DNA of 64,000 nt from a virus: IMG/VR virus record IMGVR_UViG_3300003316_000080, positions 1 to 64,000 of that record, one strand, 5' to 3'. Position 1 is the first letter of the stretch. Each line of letters begins with the position of its first letter. Below are positions 4,286 through 62,683 of this stretch, piece by piece. Both the position numbers and the translations under genes were made by a program. Under the pieces are notes generated by a model, which saw only the letters and a list, made by a program, of their open reading frames with translations, searched no databases and was not told the DNA's origin.

Positions 4286-5737
4286 GTGGAGATTCAAACC
4301 ACGCTAGACGCAAGTCTGGCTGAGAACCTGTTGACGCTTCTGTGCTTTGACGACGAGCACTGCAAGCTGATCCGGTATGGGCTGACGCCGCAGATGTTTG
4401 AATCGGCGGTGCTCAAGCAGATTGCCGGCGTCGCAATCGACTTCATCGATCAGTTTGGTGTCGCGGTCAAGGAGCACTTGCCCGACCACCTAGAAGACAT
4501 CCTGAACGGTGAAGACCAGCGCAAGGCGAAGTCGTATCGGATGGTGCTGGAAAAGCTGTATGACTCGAAGGACGCGGTGAATGCCGAGTTCGTCATGTCG
4601 CAGTTGCATGCATTCGTTCGCGCAGCCACGCTGAAGAGCGGACTGATGGACGCCGTTGCTCACATGGAGTCGGGCCGGATCGCGGAGTGCGAAACAGCCA
4701 TGACGACAGCCTTGAGCCGTCAGGTGATTTCGTTCGAAGTGGGCACGCGACTGGACAATGCAGACAGCTTGTCGGAAGCGCTGACCAATCTGGAAGAACC
4801 GGGCTTCAACCTCGACATTGACGCTTTCGATCGCGTTGGTGCGATTCCACGCCGCAAGCAGCTGTCTGTGTTCTTGGCAGCACGTGGCCGTGGTAAGTCA
4901 TGGTGGTCGATCTACATGGGCAAGCAGGCGCTGCTGCAGCGCTGGTCCGTGCTGATTGTCACGTTGGAGTTGTCTGAGGCGTACTACACGAAGCGCTTTC
5001 TGCAGTCGTTCTTCTCAATCTCGGACCGACAAGCCAAGGTGCTGGTGTCGGAGTTCAAGCGCGGACGTGATGGCTCGATCGTGGACGTCGTTCAGTCGGA
5101 ACTGCACCGACGCACACTGCGTGACGATGACTCCTTGGAGTACATCGCAGCGCGAGCACGGCGCGAGTTCAAGCAACGCCCCCCGCTGATCATCAAGAAC
5201 TTTCCTACAGCGACACTGACAGCTGAGACGCTGGAAGCGTATCTGGACGGTCTGCAGCGCCATCAGAACTTCACACCGGACCTGATCCTTGTCGACTATC
5301 CAGGCTTGATGAAGCTCGATCCCAAGAACAAGCGCATTGAGCTGGGATCGGCGGTGGAGCGTCTACGCGGCATTGCCGTAGCCCGCAACGCCCACATGGG
5401 GATCATGGCTCAGGGCAATCGTGAGTCGGAGACGGCACACACGGTCACGGCGGACATGACCGCCGAGGACATCTCGCTGTTGGCTACGGCTGACTTGTTC
5501 TTCACCTACAGCCAGACCAAGCTGGAGGAAAAGCTTAACCTCGCCCGCATCTTGTGTGAGAAGAACCGTAATGGTGTGGACGGCTTCGGGGCTCTGATCA
5601 CACAAAGCTATGAGATCGGCCAGTTCTGCCTGGACTCCAGTCCGCTAGAAACTTCTTACTGGGAACTGGACGTGCACGAGCAGGAAGACGAGGACCGGCC
5701 GCGCCGCAAGAAGCGTCGCAACGAGGACGAAGAATGA
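4286..5737 (+). CDS. dnaB: DnaB-like replicative DNA helicase
   Basis: GTG start; Walker A AARGRGKSW, Walker B LILVDYPG, C-terminal EKNRNG as in DnaB family. Confidence 0.75.
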   Translation: MEIQTTLDASLAENLLTLLCFDDEHCKLIRYGLTPQMFESAVLKQIAGVAIDFIDQFGVAVKEHLPDHLEDILNGEDQRKAKSYRMVLEKLYDSKDAVNAEFVMSQLHAFVRAATLKSGLMDAVAHMESGRIAECETAMTTALSRQVISFEVGTRLDNADSLSEALTNLEEPGFNLDIDAFDRVGAIPRRKQLSVFLAARGRGKSWWSIYMGKQALLQRWSVLIVTLELSEAYYTKRFLQSFFSISDRQAKVLVSEFKRGRDGSIVDVVQSELHRRTLRDDDSLEYIAARARREFKQRPPLIIKNFPTATLTAETLEAYLDGLQRHQNFTPDLILVDYPGLMKLDPKNKRIELGSAVERLRGIAVARNAHMGIMAQGNRESETAHTVTADMTAEDISLLATADLFFTYSQTKLEEKLNLARILCEKNRNGVDGFGALITQSYEIGQFCLDSSPLETSYWELDVHEQEDEDRPRRKKRRNEDEE

Positions 5738-7314
5738 TTCTGGTGTCGCGCCATGCCATCACACGCTACCTTGACCGAGAGCTAGAAACACACAAGTGGG
5801 TCAAGAAGCTGACAGAGCGTCAGCTGTGGCAGGAACTGAAGCAGCTGCGCACTGTCCCTCAGTTCAAGACTGACCCATGGCTGCACCAACTGGCGTGCTT
5901 CTATCTGGGCCTGCACTACCTGCGCTTCCTGTTCATCCTAGACATGGGGCTGGGCAAGTCGAAGTTGGTGATTGACCTGATCGAGCACCGTTTTCGGCAG
6001 AAGCGTCTCAGCATGCGCCGCGACGGACGCACAGCGCTGGTGATCGTTCCAGGCGTGCTGAATACGGTTGGATGGGGTGAGGACATCGAGCGCCATTCAC
6101 TCATGGAACCGCACCTGATCACGTGCGAGAACATTGAGCAGAAGCGCTATGAACTGCTGCACCCACAAGGTGAAGTGACCGTGATCGACATGCCGTCGCT
6201 TGCCCTAGCACTGTCCACCAAGAAGAAAGGCAAGGGTCGTGGCAAGTTGCTGGCAGACAAGCAGGCGATTGCACGCGCTCAGCAGTTGTACGGTTTCATT
6301 GGCGTTGATGAGACGCACAAGTACAAGAACCACGAAACCCTGTGGTACGACGTGCTCGATCCTCTGTGTGCAGCAGCCGACGAGGTGAAGGGGCTGACTG
6401 GAACCATCTTCAGTGCAAGTCCGATCGAGATGTGGCCGCAGTTTAATCTCGTCGACCGAGGTGAGACGTTCGAGAACCGTGGACTCTTCCAGGCGGCCTT
6501 CTTCGACTCGAAGTCAGATCATGTGAAGGGGACTGTGTACACCTTCAGGCCTGAGAGGACACGTACTCTCAACAGGATGATGCAGCACCGCTCGATTCAG
6601 TATGACGAATCGGAGGTGCACGAACTTCCAGAGCGCGTCTATCGTCCGATCAGGATGGAACTGGCAGGCGAAGCGGACGAGCATTACCGTCGCGCTCTGG
6701 AAGGTGTCATTAATGTTGGCGCCGCCGAGAGTAGCAAGCTAGATGGAGGCTGGGTGCGCATGCGCCAGATCTGCGGTGGCTACCTGAAGTGGTCTGATGC
6801 ACACGGAGCGCACAAGCTCATCTTTGCACAGAACCCGAAGTTGGACATGCTGATGCGCCTGCTGGAGGACATCGGAAGTAAGAAGGCTGTTGTGTGCCAT
6901 GACTACACCGACAGCGCGGAACTGATCGAAGCGCGGTTTAAGAAGGAGGGCATCAAGTACGCCACGTGCTCAGGGCGGACGAAGGACAAACCGGCAGAAC
7001 GCGCTCGCTTTCTCGATGATCCAACCTGCCGCGTCTTCTTGATGCAGAACGCGGCTGGGGGAACAGGCACTGACGGCCTGCAGAAGGTGTCCAACTACAT
7101 GATCTTCTTTGAGTCGCCAGCCTCCCCGGGTCTGCGCAAGCAAGTAGAAAAGCGCATACATCGTCCAGGTCAGACACAGAGGGCGTTCTACTACGATTTG
7201 ACATATGGGCGCACCGTCGATAGCGGCATCCGTGAAGCACACAAGCAGGGTTTTGACCTATACGAAGCCGTGATGTCTGGACGCTCTTCGACCTTGAGAG
7301 GGCTCATGAGTTGA
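5734..7314 (+). CDS. SNF2/SF2-family DNA helicase
   Basis: motif I LDMGLGKS, motif II VDETHK, motif VI HRPGQTQ. Confidence 0.75.
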   Translation: MILVSRHAITRYLDRELETHKWVKKLTERQLWQELKQLRTVPQFKTDPWLHQLACFYLGLHYLRFLFILDMGLGKSKLVIDLIEHRFRQKRLSMRRDGRTALVIVPGVLNTVGWGEDIERHSLMEPHLITCENIEQKRYELLHPQGEVTVIDMPSLALALSTKKKGKGRGKLLADKQAIARAQQLYGFIGVDETHKYKNHETLWYDVLDPLCAAADEVKGLTGTIFSASPIEMWPQFNLVDRGETFENRGLFQAAFFDSKSDHVKGTVYTFRPERTRTLNRMMQHRSIQYDESEVHELPERVYRPIRMELAGEADEHYRRALEGVINVGAAESSKLDGGWVRMRQICGGYLKWSDAHGAHKLIFAQNPKLDMLMRLLEDIGSKKAVVCHDYTDSAELIEARFKKEGIKYATCSGRTKDKPAERARFLDDPTCRVFLMQNAAGGTGTDGLQKVSNYMIFFESPASPGLRKQVEKRIHRPGQTQRAFYYDLTYGRTVDSGIREAHKQGFDLYEAVMSGRSSTLRGLMS

Positions 7315-26964: not shown

Positions 26965-26995
26965 AAAGGCCCCTGACTCAACATCAGGGGCCTTT
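26965..26995. terminator. bidirectional rho-independent terminator between convergent genes
   Basis: 12-bp stem AAAGGCCCCTGA / TCAGGGGCCTTT, 7-nt loop, A-run before and T-run after. Confidence 0.6.
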
Positions 26996-42380: not shown

Positions 42381-43076
42381 ATGAAAAACGTGCTCAAGCG
42401 CTTCGACGCGATCCTGCTGGTGGGTCTGGCCGCCGTCGTTGCGACCATTTCCACCGTTGTGCAGACGGTGGCCGGCTTCGCTGCCTACGTCGTCCACACC
42501 CTGAAGGAAACCGGCCTGCGCATCGTGTGCGGCCCGCAAGTCTCCCTGACCCCGACTGGCGATGTCGCCATCACCTACCGCATGGGTGGCGGCACCCCCG
42601 GTGACGTGAACCGCACTCATCCGTTCTCTGTGCTGCCCTGCCTGATGGACGCGGCCAACCCGGTGCTGTTCTACGGTGATGCTGTCTTCGTCGGCACTGC
42701 CTCGAACGTGCGTCGTGTGGCGACCACCGACGGTTCTGCGACGGCTGGTCCGCTGTACGGTGTGGCGGCCCGTCCGTACCCGATCCAGCAGACCAGCGGC
42801 GGCATGTCGTCGTCGTTTGGCGTGGCCCCTGTGTCGTCCAATCAACCGCTCGACGTGGTGCGCCAAGGCTTCGTGATCGTGAAGCTGCCTGCTGGCGCTG
42901 TCGTCAAGAAGGGTGATCCGGTGCAAGTGTGGGCGGCTGCTTCGGCGGGTGCCAACGTGCAAGGTCAGTTCGTCGCTGCGGCGTCGGGCACCAACACTTT
43001 CACCGCGACCAACGCGAAGTACAACGGCCCGGCCGATGCCGACGGCAACGTCGAAATCGAAATCTGGGCCGCCTGA
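42381..43076 (+). CDS. capsid-associated structural protein
   Basis: AAGGAA SD; position between scaffold and major capsid. Confidence 0.45.
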   Translation: MKNVLKRFDAILLVGLAAVVATISTVVQTVAGFAAYVVHTLKETGLRIVCGPQVSLTPTGDVAITYRMGGGTPGDVNRTHPFSVLPCLMDAANPVLFYGDAVFVGTASNVRRVATTDGSATAGPLYGVAARPYPIQQTSGGMSSSFGVAPVSSNQPLDVVRQGFVIVKLPAGAVVKKGDPVQVWAAASAGANVQGQFVAAASGTNTFTATNAKYNGPADADGNVEIEIWAA

Positions 43077-43117
43077 TCCGCCTCGGCGTCACCTCAGCAA
43101 CTACCAAGGAATCCATC

Positions 43118-44338
43118 ATGAAATTCCCGAAGATCTTCACGCCGAAGCGCTCCATCGTGCGCGTGGTGCGTGGTCACATGACTGGCGACAACGGCAGCGC
43201 CCTTGCGGCACTGCTGGCCGGCGCCGGTCACAACACCTTCGACGCCAACGCGGTCGGCGCGCTGCTGGCCGCTCCGACGGCCTCGATCGATCTGTACGGC
43301 AACCAGCGCGGCCACACCCTGCAACACCCGGTGCAGATCAAGACCGCTGACGGCCAGATGCGCACGGTCGACTCGACCGGCGCCTTCATGGTCGGTGAGC
43401 TGGAGCGCCTCGACCCGACCATGAACATGCCGCTGGTCGACGTGTCATGGTCGCGTGACATCGACCTGCGCGAAGACGTGTCGCTGGCCGACGAACTGTC
43501 GTCGTACACGCTGAGCCAGATCGCGGCGGCTGGTGGCCTCGCTGCCGGCGCCGGCATCCGCAACGGTAAGGCGTGGATCGGTAAGGTGTCCAACCAGATC
43601 GGCGGCGTGTCCGTCGACATCTCGAAGATCACCAACCCGCTGACGCTCTGGGGCATGGAAGTCAAGTACTCCATCCCGGAACTGGAGAGCGCCGCGCGCG
43701 CCGGTCGTCCGATCGATGAACAGAAGCTGGAGGGCCTGCGCCTGAAGCAGCAGATGGACGTCGACGAGCAGGTCTACGTGGGTGACGCCCAGATCAACGT
43801 GGGCGGCCTGTGCAACCACTCGCTGGTCACCAACGTCGCCAACCTGCCCAACGGTGCGGGCGGCTCGCCGCGCTGGTCCCTGAAGACGGCCGATGAGATC
43901 CTGACGGACGTCAACGCGATCCTGACCTCCGCGTGGCGCGCGTCAGGCTACGCGCAGATCCCCAACCGCCTGCTGCTGCCGCCCACCGTGTTCGGCATGC
44001 TGACGACCCGGATCGTGTCGTCTGCCGGCTCCGTCTCGATCCTGCGGTACCTGCTGGAGAACAACATTCTTACCAAGCAGGGCAAGGGTGATCTGGAGAT
44101 CTTCCCGGTCAAGTGGCTGGTCGGCTGCGGCGTCGGCGGCACCATCGGCACGGAAGGCGGTGTCGACCGCATGGTGGCGTACCGCAAGGACAAGCGTCTG
44201 GTGCGCTTCCCCATGACCGGCCTGCAGCGCACCCCGGTGCAGTTCTCGTCGATCTACCACAGCACGACGTACTTCAACCGCCTCGGCGTCGTCGAGTTCG
44301 TCTACCCGGAGACGGCGGCCTACAGAGACGGTCTCTAA
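43118..44338 (+). CDS. major capsid protein
   Basis: 406 aa, position after scaffold; ATG 43118. Confidence 0.6.
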   Translation: MKFPKIFTPKRSIVRVVRGHMTGDNGSALAALLAGAGHNTFDANAVGALLAAPTASIDLYGNQRGHTLQHPVQIKTADGQMRTVDSTGAFMVGELERLDPTMNMPLVDVSWSRDIDLREDVSLADELSSYTLSQIAAAGGLAAGAGIRNGKAWIGKVSNQIGGVSVDISKITNPLTLWGMEVKYSIPELESAARAGRPIDEQKLEGLRLKQQMDVDEQVYVGDAQINVGGLCNHSLVTNVANLPNGAGGSPRWSLKTADEILTDVNAILTSAWRASGYAQIPNRLLLPPTVFGMLTTRIVSSAGSVSILRYLLENNILTKQGKGDLEIFPVKWLVGCGVGGTIGTEGGVDRMVAYRKDKRLVRFPMTGLQRTPVQFSSIYHSTTYFNRLGVVEFVYPETAAYRDGL

Positions 44339-44355
44339 TGTGAATTCATAGTGTA

Positions 44356-44389
44356 CCATGGGGACCTTTTCACAAGGAGGTCCCCATGG
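44356..44389 (+). promoter_or_regulatory. RNA hairpin sequestering RBS and start codon of GIY-YIG gene
   Basis: perfect 11-bp inverted repeat CCATGGGGACC (44356-44366) / GGTCCCCATGG (44379-44389); loop holds AAGGA; ATG 44386 inside right arm. Confidence 0.5.
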
Positions 44390-45051
44390 ACACAAGAGTT
44401 CGCAAGGTTTACGCGTTGATGGACCCACGTGGGGCTGTAACCAGCGTCCGATATGTCGGGTGCACGCTTCAGAAGATTCTGAACAGGTTGCAGTCCCACA
44501 TTTACGAAGCAGAGACGAGTCCTGATGTCACACCAAAGCTTGTGTGGTTGCGAGCGCTGGCCGACGCGGGTTTAAAGCCTCTGATCGTGCACTTGGAAAC
44601 AGTGGCACCTGAAGACGACTGGCAAGAGCGTGAGAAGTACTGGATCGCGAAATACAGCGGACCTGAATTGCTCAACACAACGACAGGTGGTATCGGGGCA
44701 CAGGGTTTAGCCCAAGATGTTCGTGATCGAATTTCGGAAGCGCTGCGCGGTCGTAGCCTGAGTGAAGAGCACAAAGCAAAGCTACGGAAGAACGCAGCAG
44801 AGAACCCATACAAGCACACAGAAGAAGCGAAGCGCGCTATCTCGGAGTCCAAGAAAGGTCTGAAGTTAGGACCCTTGTCCAACGAAGCCAAGCAGAAACT
44901 GCGTGATGCCATGGGCTCTCTGGTGTGGATCACCAACGGGCGGGAAAACCGACGTGTGAAAGCAGATGCCATTCCGGCTGGGTGGCAGAAGGGGCGAGCC
45001 CCAAAGGACCAGCCAAAGCAATCACGCCGCGTACTTCGCGACGACCTTTAA
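44386..45051 (+). CDS. GIY-YIG homing endonuclease with NUMOD3-like repeats
   Basis: KVYALMDPRG...VRYVGCT, conserved Glu in QEREKYWIAKY, repeated S-E-E-H-K-A-K-L motifs; free-standing between capsid and tail genes. Confidence 0.8.
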   Translation: MDTRVRKVYALMDPRGAVTSVRYVGCTLQKILNRLQSHIYEAETSPDVTPKLVWLRALADAGLKPLIVHLETVAPEDDWQEREKYWIAKYSGPELLNTTTGGIGAQGLAQDVRDRISEALRGRSLSEEHKAKLRKNAAENPYKHTEEAKRAISESKKGLKLGPLSNEAKQKLRDAMGSLVWITNGRENRRVKADAIPAGWQKGRAPKDQPKQSRRVLRDDL

Positions 45052-45067
45052 CCCAAGGAGAGCCGAA

Positions 45068-45355
45068 ATGGCAAAAGCCCCGACGAACACCAACAAGTCG
45101 ACGAAGTCCACGGCGCGCAACACGCTGCTGACCACGGACAAGTCGCCGATTCCGCAGCCGGAAGGCCATGGCCCGACGGAGACGGAGAAGCTGGCCGCTG
45201 AAGACAAGGTGCGTGTCTTCGTGCCCAAGGCGTTCAAGATCACGCTGGACGATGGCGACATGGTCGACATCGCGGCCGGTGAACAGAAGATGCCCAAGTC
45301 GCTCGCCGAGCACTGGTACTCCAAGGTCAACGGCGTCGAGATCGCTGAAGACTGA
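45068..45355 (+). CDS. hypothetical structural protein
   Basis: ORF track; GGAGAG SD. Confidence 0.45.
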   Translation: MAKAPTNTNKSTKSTARNTLLTTDKSPIPQPEGHGPTETEKLAAEDKVRVFVPKAFKITLDDGDMVDIAAGEQKMPKSLAEHWYSKVNGVEIAED

Positions 45356-45384
45356 GGACACGTCGCACTGCTGCAGGAGATCGT

Positions 45385-45855
45385 ATGGACTGCTCTACCT
45401 CGGATGTGGTTGTCACGGTGACGGGCTTTCGGGAGACGTTTCCCGAGTTCGTCAACGACGTGGCGTACCCGGCGTACATGATCGAGCCGCTGCTGACACT
45501 GAACAAGCAGCTGGTGAACCAAGCGCGCTTCGGGGATCTGACGGCCTACATGATCTACCTGCGCACTGCGCACATGCTGGTGATCCAGAAGCAAAGCATG
45601 AACGCGGCGGCACGCGGGGGTGTGCCGGGGATGTCGGTCGGACCCATGAGCAGCAAAGGCGCTGAAGGCATGTCGGCTTCGTATGAGGTCGGTGCCGTCA
45701 TGGAAGACGGTGCGGGATGGTGGAATGGCACCGTCTACGGCCGTATGTGGTGGTCGTACAAGAACCTGTTTGGCGCAGGTCCCATGCAGGTCGGTGGCCC
45801 CGGTCCTGCTGTGCTGACGGCGTGGCCGGGCCCAGGTGGTTTCTTCCCTGTGTGA
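45385..45855 (+). CDS. hypothetical structural protein
   Basis: ORF track. Confidence 0.45.
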   Translation: MDCSTSDVVVTVTGFRETFPEFVNDVAYPAYMIEPLLTLNKQLVNQARFGDLTAYMIYLRTAHMLVIQKQSMNAAARGGVPGMSVGPMSSKGAEGMSASYEVGAVMEDGAGWWNGTVYGRMWWSYKNLFGAGPMQVGGPGPAVLTAWPGPGGFFPV

Positions 45856-45861
45856 GGCCAC

Positions 45862-46461
45862 ATGGCAAACAGCAAACGCGATGTGCCCAAGGAGTTACCC
45901 TCGTCCCTGAGTGTCACCAAAGACAACATGGCGGCGCTCTTCAGTGGACTCTCGCGTCTGGTGAGCCGTGAGGTGCTGGTGGGCTTTCCCGAGGGGGAAG
46001 ACAACGAGCGCAAGCCTGAGCCTGGTGAGCCCGAAGGTCTGACCAACGCGGCACTGGGCTACATCCACGACAACGGATCTGAAGACGCACATATCCCTGC
46101 GCGTCCGTTCATGGTGCCCGGTCTGGAGTCTGTGAAGGAAGAGACTTCCAGCGCACTGGGCGGCGCTGCACGTGTAGCTCTGTCGGCGCGCGGGGGTGAT
46201 GCTGTCGAGCAGCGTCTGCACCGTGCCGGCAGCATCGCAGCCAACGGTATCAAGGCCAAGGTCAATGAAGGTGTGCCCCCTCCACTTGCAGACGCCACCG
46301 TGCGTGCACGTGCTCGTCGCGGCCGCAAGGGCGCCAAGGAGGAATTGGAGCGCCGCAGTCAAGGTGAAGCCCCCGGCACTGATCTCGCGAAGCCCTTGGT
46401 CGACACAGCCCAGATGCGCAACGCGATCACCTACGCAATCCGCAACAGGGAGGCCGAATAA
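45862..46461 (+). CDS. head-tail joining protein (HK97 gp10-like)
   Basis: ARPFMVPG ... KPLVDTAQMRNAITYAI resembles gp10 family. Confidence 0.5.
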   Translation: MANSKRDVPKELPSSLSVTKDNMAALFSGLSRLVSREVLVGFPEGEDNERKPEPGEPEGLTNAALGYIHDNGSEDAHIPARPFMVPGLESVKEETSSALGGAARVALSARGGDAVEQRLHRAGSIAANGIKAKVNEGVPPPLADATVRARARRGRKGAKEELERRSQGEAPGTDLAKPLVDTAQMRNAITYAIRNREAE

Positions 46462-62623: not shown

Positions 62624-62647
62624 GTTGTTGCTCCAATGAGAAAGGGT

Positions 62648-62683
62648 GCAGAGATTATATACAAACCTCTGCACCCTCTACAA
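62648..62683 (-). promoter_or_regulatory. leftward sigma70-like promoter (TTGTAG-N18-TATAAT) with -10 inside 10-bp inverted repeat
   Basis: -10 = revcomp of 62654-62659; inverted repeat GGGTGCAGAG 62644-62653 / CTCTGCACCC 62667-62676; CAGTAAA motif 62684-62698 adjacent. Confidence 0.35.

Follow-up and report, generated by a model that had tools for sequence, protein, structure and literature searches.

A hairpin closing the ribosome-binding site of a GIY-YIG endonuclease gene behind a phage major capsid gene, and its probable role in silencing the gene on read-through capsid mRNA

A homing endonuclease gene has to keep the damage to its carrier phage small, and nearly all that has been learnt about how such genes are wired into the expression of the host phage comes from T-even phages. 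The locus described here raises the question of how an endonuclease gene is controlled when it is located directly behind a major capsid gene and its Shine-Dalgarno (SD) sequence and start codon lie within a hairpin. The locus was found in the window, i.e. the whole 64,000-nucleotide stretch of viral DNA that was analysed; all window coordinates given below are on the plus strand.

The gene at 44386-45051 encodes a protein of 221 amino acids, which Pfam, PHROG and the predicted structure assign to the free-standing GIY-YIG/NUMOD3 homing endonucleases, with a catalytic domain at residues ~1-105 and a helical DNA-binding region of the NUMOD3 type at residues ~110-205. The Pfam match to NUMOD3 (2.8e-6, 27.6 bits) exceeded its cut-off of 20.4 and the protein matched PHROG 314, annotated as 'homing endonuclease', while the match to GIY-YIG (18.6 bits) was under the cut-off of 22.6. 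As the catalytic domain was only marginally supported by sequence, the structure was predicted. In the model, based on an alignment of 44 sequences, the mean pLDDT was 85.9, with values above 90 over residues 1-100, and the GIY-YIG catalytic fold is predicted to be present. The model also has helices at 110-177, and there was a weak profile match to the DNA-binding domain of I-TevI (1i3j, E 0.84); the protein thus has a modular C-terminal DNA-binding region with NUMOD-type helices. Residues Y9, Y23, G25, E83 and N97 were invariant among the 44 homologues and R34 and H38 among the seven closest ones. Y9, Y23, R34, E83 and N97 are the presumed equivalents of I-TevI Y6, Y17, R27, E75 and N90, and the conserved catalytic motif residues of the GIY-YIG class appear to be in place. 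No paralogue of the endonuclease was found elsewhere in the window when all open reading frames were searched with phmmer.

The major capsid protein gene upstream (43118-44338, likely start ATG at 43118, stop TAA at 44336-44338) was identified by Pfam (PF09950 Major_capside, 1.1e-75) and PHROG (264, major head protein), and is itself preceded by genes for a DUF2213 protein and a cement/minor capsid protein. Only 16 nt separate the endonuclease stop codon from the ATG of a conserved gene of 95 amino acids (45068-45355), which has an SD of its own, AAGGAGA, and is followed by genes for a DUF4054/E217 gp27-like protein, neck and tail-terminator proteins and the tail sheath. GC content drops to 0.52-0.55 within the endonuclease gene, compared to 0.62-0.69 in the flanks. 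The endonuclease is absent from seven related contigs (L001-L006 and L008), the capsid proteins of which are 53-65 % identical, and from the cultured Edwardsiella phage vB_EpM_ZHS; in these relatives the capsid gene joins the homologue of the 95-aa gene directly. Homologous endonucleases, 32-78 % identical, are found at the same site and in the same orientation in 11 other loci (L020, L021, L022, L023/24, L025/26, L027/28, L068, L105, L106, L107 and L189). The initial annotation regarded the gene as a mobile insert between capsid and tail genes and proposed a comparison with relatives lacking it. Its view is borne out by the facultative occurrence, the dip in GC content and the shared site, and presence and absence at a fixed position of otherwise collinear genomes appear as expected from the life cycle of homing endonuclease genes.

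Further variation was seen at and near this site. The copy in L068 (2338-3121) is frameshifted, with ~45 amino acids in frame 0 and the continuation in +1, and is either a pseudogene or an assembly indel. In L007 a GIY-YIG endonuclease of 305 amino acids (4933-5850, minus strand) occupies the same site between the capsid gene and the 95-aa gene in antisense orientation, and shares the C-terminal motif WITxG..NRR..P.GW. One or two extra genes of ~200 amino acids are placed between the 95-aa gene and the DUF4054 gene in L027 (4195-4803), L068 (3836-4471) and L007 (6435-7668); they are absent from the window, and this interval is a second variable spot of the head-neck module. The spacer after the capsid gene also differs between genomes with and without the endonuclease. 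An intrinsic terminator, GGGGGAAGGCA-TCAC-TGCCTCCCCC followed by TTTTTGTTTCTTTTT, is located directly 3' of the capsid gene in L002 (5104-5143) and in vB_EpM_ZHS (L185, 4005-4045), and the endonuclease-less L004 has another hairpin in this spacer. None of the endonuclease-bearing loci examined had the L002-type terminator; the insertion thus seems to have removed or replaced the terminator of the capsid gene.

The hairpin at the start of the endonuclease gene consists of a 5' arm, CCAUGGGGACCUUUU (44356-44370), a CACA tetraloop (44371-44374) and a 3' arm, AGGAGGUCCCCAUGG (44375-44389), which contains the SD core and the AUG. The sequence itself holds an inverted repeat of 12 nt with 100 % complementarity (44356-44367/44378-44389, repeat search), which RNAfold extends to a stem of 15 bp by one U-A and two U·G pairs. 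In the predicted fold this core is flanked by outer helices at 44351-44354/44390-44393 and 44339-44347/44396-44404, the whole extended structure in the 111-nt fold spanning 44339-44404. The hairpin was very stable: a 61-nt fold had a free energy of -33.2 kcal/mol (z = -6.3) and the 111-nt fold -49.3 kcal/mol (z = -5.7), and none of 200 shuffled sequences was equally stable in either case. The initial annotation, which named RNA folding as a check, had described a perfect 11-bp stem with the SD in its loop and the ATG in the right arm. Its arms, CCATGGGGACC (44356-44366) and GGTCCCCATGG (44379-44389), are exactly located and form part of the longer repeat and stem, and the ATG (44386-44388) is indeed inside the 3' arm. 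The SD, however, is not in the loop. AAGGAGG (44374-44380), 5 nt 5' of the ATG, is almost entirely paired in the predicted fold, AGGAGG at 44375-44380 with CCUUUU, and the predicted sequestration is therefore more complete than had been described.

Perfect hairpins of at least 11 bp with loops of 3-15 nt are rare in this DNA, three distinct ones being present in the 64-kb window compared to a mean of 0.3 expected from 20 first-order Markov simulations. It is unlikely that a hairpin located exactly on an SD and an ATG arose by chance. The two others are AAAGGCCCCTGA-ctcaaca-TCAGGGGCCTTT followed by ATGCTTTCG at 26965-26995, and AGGGTGCAGAG-attatatacaaac-CTCTGCACCCT at 62643-62677. A search of the Rfam 15 covariance models gave nothing above the gathering score. 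The sub-threshold matches, HIV_FS2 (22 bits, compared to 44 required) and mir-361 (19.7 bits, compared to 70), were on the opposite strand and reflect generic hairpins only, and a known RNA family was thus rejected. The 5' arm also has an ATG of its own (44358), because CCATGG is self-complementary. This ATG opens an ORF of 55 codons (44358-44525) in another frame, which has no upstream SD. It is probably without significance, although scanning or terminating ribosomes could be caught there.

The predicted structure makes the ribosome-binding site (RBS) of the endonuclease exceptionally costly to open. Opening of positions -13 to +3 requires 26.6 kcal/mol, compared to 2.3-11.9 kcal/mol for 10 neighbouring genes of the window; for the 95-aa gene the value is 7.3 kcal/mol. 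In L021 the corresponding cost was 26.0 kcal/mol, compared to 3.4-14.0 kcal/mol for 14 neighbouring genes, and in other capsid-site homologues 12-22 kcal/mol. In the wider family, 103 non-redundant loci, many of them AT-rich and with automatically called start codons, the RBS opening cost was not shifted, the median being 5.6 kcal/mol compared to 6.5 kcal/mol for controls (Mann-Whitney p = 0.63). A tail of at least 15 kcal/mol was enriched among the homologues (9.7 % compared to 2.3 % of controls), but it was made up mainly of loci of the capsid-site clade. The medians speak against RBS sequestration as a trait of the whole family, which was rejected, and the hairpin is specific to the clade.

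Within that clade the structure was maintained while its sequence changed. A 3' arm holding the SD was found in nine of the 12 loci (the window, L020, L021, L022, L025, L027, L068, L105 and L189), and in eight of these nine the A or U of the AUG was also paired; in the remaining three (L023, L106 and L107) the structures were weak or placed differently. The 5' and 3' arms are UAUGAGGGCUCC and GGAGCCCUCAUA in L020 (78 % identity), AUGGUUCGCUCCUU and AAGGAGCGAACCAU in L021 (42 % identity), AUGGAGG and CCUCCAU in L022 (37 % identity), where the UUUUCACAAGGAG centre is as in the window, AUCUCCGAAUC and GAUUCGGAGAU in L189, and AUAAUGUCUU and AAGGCAUUAU in L068, while L025, L027 and L105 have hairpins with sequences of their own. 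The frameshifted L068 copy keeps a 10-bp RBS hairpin, ATAATGTCTT/AAGGCATTAT. When the three closest homologues (L020, L021 and L022) were folded, z values were between -3.8 and -6.5. Since a MAFFT alignment of the hairpins was structurally inconsistent, each locus was folded by itself and its pairs were listed by their distance from the AUG. Each spacer position from -7 to -1 showed two to four types of Watson-Crick pair, with both sides changing, G·U pairs occurred in all 12 folds, and in 11 of the 12 loci the sense strand gave the more stable fold, the mean difference from the antisense strand being -2.7 kcal/mol. The register of the 3' arm is fixed to the endonuclease AUG, whereas between loci the spacing to the capsid stop ranges from 17 to ~50 nt. 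The covariation, the G·U pairs and the strand bias argue for a function of the sense strand at the RNA level and not for a DNA palindrome, and the pairing appears to have been preserved by compensatory changes across roughly a dozen divergent relatives.

Two loci with other arrangements may be mentioned here. A more distant homologue (P0010) in another context, L190 (2205-2262), has a perfect 14-bp hairpin, ATTAGTAATTGTGG/CCACAATTACTAAT, which ends 3 nt 5' of the SD AAAGGAGA and leaves it uncovered, an arrangement resembling that of the unusual seg43(25) of Aeromonas phage 25 (PMC2988022). The region upstream of the antisense endonuclease of L007 had no significant structure (z = -1.05), which agrees with the idea that a hairpin is required only where transcription from the capsid gene reads into the endonuclease gene.

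Since no terminator-like site was found in a scan of the plus strand from 43000 to 46000, the hairpin starts 17 nt past the capsid stop and only the 16-nt gap follows the gene, the endonuclease gene is expected to lie inside a late polycistronic mRNA that begins 5' of the capsid gene. The following course of events would account for the observations. In a myovirus of ~67 kb, a GIY-YIG gene would have inserted itself into the short gap that separates the major capsid gene from the head gene after it. Transcripts reading through from the highly expressed capsid gene would carry both arms of the hairpin, the RBS would be closed and the endonuclease would be translated poorly or not at all from this mRNA, while the downstream structural genes, having open RBSs of their own, would still be translated. 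We infer this repression from thermodynamics and from analogy with I-TevI of T4 and mobE of Aeh1, and give a probability of about three in four to the hairpin serving to silence translation of the endonuclease from capsid mRNA that reads through. The best explanation of the locus would then be that a potentially harmful nuclease is silenced on the most abundant late transcript, and the occurrence of the hairpin in the clade right behind the capsid gene fits this logic. In T4, mutants without the I-TevI hairpin suffered no endonuclease-mediated loss of viability (PMC2988022), an observation that weighs against this explanation.

Other roles of the structure were weighed against translational silencing. 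The hairpin might mainly serve the capsid mRNA, as a 3' stabiliser, a pause site or an attenuator that replaces the lost terminator, with the cover of the RBS being incidental. Endonuclease-less relatives do have a hairpin right after the capsid stop (L002, vB_EpM_ZHS and L004), and in the endonuclease-bearing genomes the RBS hairpin is the only strong structure after the capsid gene. Yet the stem is not followed by a U-tract in L020, L021, L022 or the window, where ACACAAGAGUUCG follows instead, and together with the empty plus-strand terminator scan this rejects a Rho-independent terminator. Moreover, the 3' arm keeps its register with the SD and AUG of the endonuclease rather than with the capsid stop, and the presence of the hairpin follows that of the endonuclease and not that of the capsid gene. 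We therefore consider it unlikely that the capsid mRNA is the main beneficiary, but such a role could coexist with translational repression and is plausible as a secondary one.

Processing by an RNase III-type enzyme is less probable still. The extended stem at 44339-44404, ~28 bp with bulges, is long enough in the window (15 + 4 + 9 bp with small interruptions) to resemble the substrates of such enzymes, of which the processing sites of T7 and lambda are well-known examples, and cleavage would separate the capsid mRNA from the downstream mRNA and either destroy or activate the endonuclease RBS. However, in the homologues only a core of 8-15 bp is conserved, shorter than typical substrates, and the outer helices are not; conserved internal-loop features were not seen among them and no Rfam match was above threshold. 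The least probable of the alternatives, to which we give very little weight, is a signal in the DNA, i.e. a protein-binding site, a recombination or cruciform site or an operator of the endonuclease, or else chance complementarity around two NcoI-like CCATGG sites. The arms do form a perfect palindrome pair in the DNA, and I-TevI binds an operator that overlaps its own promoter (PMC2988022). Against this, the homologues keep the pairing and not the sequence, the G·U pairs would turn into A·C mismatches in the complementary strand, which folded less well in 11 of the 12 loci, and the stem keeps a constant register with the SD and AUG; as for chance, the 0.3 hairpins expected per window could fall anywhere, and far fewer would be expected on an RBS.

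If the RBS is closed on the read-through mRNA, the endonuclease could be made from a shorter transcript that lacks most of the 5' arm, started by a -10-like element in the arm, on which the RBS would stay open. In the window the candidate promoter (44349-44359) is weak, consisting of the -10-like hexamers TAGTGT (44349-44354, 3/6 matches) and TACCAT (44354-44359, 4/6 matches), which abut or overlap the 5' end of the left arm and have neither a TG nor a -35 element. A TAnnnT hexamer with at least 4/6 matches to TATAAT overlaps the 5' end of the arm in 10 of the 12 loci. It is a perfect TATAAT in L022 and L068 (at 2338-2343 in the latter, overlapping the 5' arm), TATGAT in L025, TATACT in L023, TAAAAT in L027, TACAAT in L105, TAGTAT in L020 and TACCAT in the window, none of these with a TGn, and TATGAT in L189 and TATGGT in L021, both with a TGn. 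Altogether four loci have an upstream TGn, which is on the arm-overlapping hexamer in two (L021 and L189), and in L020 an adjacent TAGTGT has an upstream TG. The predicted start, ~7 nt past the hexamer, is 8-15 nt into the arm, and in transcripts truncated at this position the RBS opening cost fell to 2.4-7.2 kcal/mol.

Some resemblance to a -10 element is inevitable, as the arm has to complement the AUG. In null simulations in which the arm was the plain complement of SD, spacer and AUG, such a hexamer was obtained in 8-17 % of cases per locus, and the probability of at least 8 of 10 is ~1e-5 to 1e-7 if the loci are treated as independent, which, being homologous, they are not. The window element is the weakest of the set. 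A consensus scan of 43000-46000 found no sigma-70 promoter, and CATAGTGTAC, with up to 2 mismatches allowed, occurred 25 times compared to 28 expected, by which a repeated phage-specific promoter motif of this sequence was rejected. With the evidence pointing both ways, a T4-style internal promoter overlapping the 5' arm is possible, although the odds are against it. Similarly tentative is the wider proposal that the capsid-site clade carries a portable cassette, in which a -10-only sigma-70-like promoter lies inside the very hairpin arm that locks its own RBS; that the arrangement persisted while the proteins diverged by more than 60 %, in phages without T4-type late transcription, belongs to this proposal and is equally doubtful.

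The endonuclease gene itself appears to be mosaic. When the window (44307-45960) was compared with L020 (1-1650), DNA identity was ~58-62 % over the hairpin and the catalytic domain, up to ~44750, and 92-100 % from ~44800 through the DNA-binding domain, the 95-aa gene, the protein of which is 100 % identical, and the DUF4054 gene. The shift suggests an approximate recombination breakpoint at 44750-44800, i.e. recombination or a domain swap at the linker between the catalytic and DNA-binding domains, or the end of a co-conversion tract. Nuclease genes have been reported to mark exchange boundaries between phages (PMC10055350), and the intragenic boundary is in line with this.

Repression by an RBS hairpin has, according to two reviews, been demonstrated for mobE of Aeh1 and I-TevI and proposed for I-TevII, I-TevIII and segB (PMC2988022, PMC3014915). 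As in endonucleases controlled in this way, a stable local hairpin in the window pairs both the SD and the start codon. The likeness to T4-type repression drawn by the initial annotation is thus supported in silico, by the hairpin over RBS and ATG and by the compensatory changes in the homologues, and as far as analysis of sequences goes its interpretation holds. The control proposed here would be one already known from phage T4, with no new mechanism involved. The closest parallels are Aeh1 mobE and T4 segB, likewise free-standing endonuclease genes located between host genes in the same orientation, on a polycistronic message, with a hairpin that occludes the RBS; for mobE this has been shown experimentally, again as given in PMC2988022 and PMC3014915, where the primary papers are cited (Gibb and Edgell 2007, 2009; Brok-Volchanskaya 2008). 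The enzymes and sites are different, mobE being an HNH enzyme at the ribonucleotide reductase locus and segB being in a tRNA region, whereas the window gene is of the GIY-YIG/NUMOD3 type beside a capsid gene. The evidence also differs in kind, from experiments with mobE to comparative covariation over ~12 divergent loci here.

Compared to I-TevI of T4 there are several differences. I-TevI is intron-encoded and the window gene is free-standing, so the rationale given for I-TevI, protection of intron folding and splicing, cannot apply. The T4 late promoter ahead of I-TevI is placed so that late transcripts lack the 5' arm (PMC2988022), while the candidate promoter of the window is sigma-70 -10-like and not a T4 late promoter (TATAAATA). 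The upstream transcript of I-TevI is early or middle, whereas that of the window, the capsid transcript, is late, and the temporal logic of the two may be reversed. The lineages are unrelated, the window having head and neck genes of the E217/XM1 type and a GC content of ~63 %. T4 segD is also a free-standing GIY-YIG endonuclease gene in the spacer after a major capsid gene (gene 23/gene 24, PMC2988022), but it is antisense and flanked by terminators, with no RBS hairpin described, whereas the window gene is in the sense orientation and has one; the L007 relative shares the antisense orientation of segD. The T4 genes e, soc and 49, with RBS hairpins that are relieved on late transcripts, resemble the window gene in that a long transcript hides the RBS and a short one leaves it free, but they are ordinary phage genes and not mobile endonuclease genes.

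What the locus adds is a clear instance of an RBS hairpin outside the T-even phages, supported by comparison, a defined hot spot for endonuclease genes after the capsid gene in a head module of the E217/XM1 type, a candidate promoter within the hairpin arm, and an intragenic boundary between catalytic and DNA-binding domains. For annotation, the lesson is that a strong SD need not mean strong translation. Genomes with, without, antisense and frameshifted copies, together with the domain-boundary recombinant, form a natural series, suited for testing why repression is selected without an intron and whether the -10 element is a real promoter. The same solution, a locked RBS, appears to be in use in an unrelated, GC-rich lineage of myoviruses, directly behind the most strongly expressed late gene. 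If the tentative cassette proposal is true, the timing would be opposite to that of T4: the abundant late capsid mRNA would yield no endonuclease, which would be made only from a short transcript of its own, presumably at an earlier time and by the host RNA polymerase, and the hairpin would also replace the capsid terminator displaced by the insertion. A promoter within a hairpin would then be a general design, convergent or ancient, and not a peculiarity of the T-even phages.
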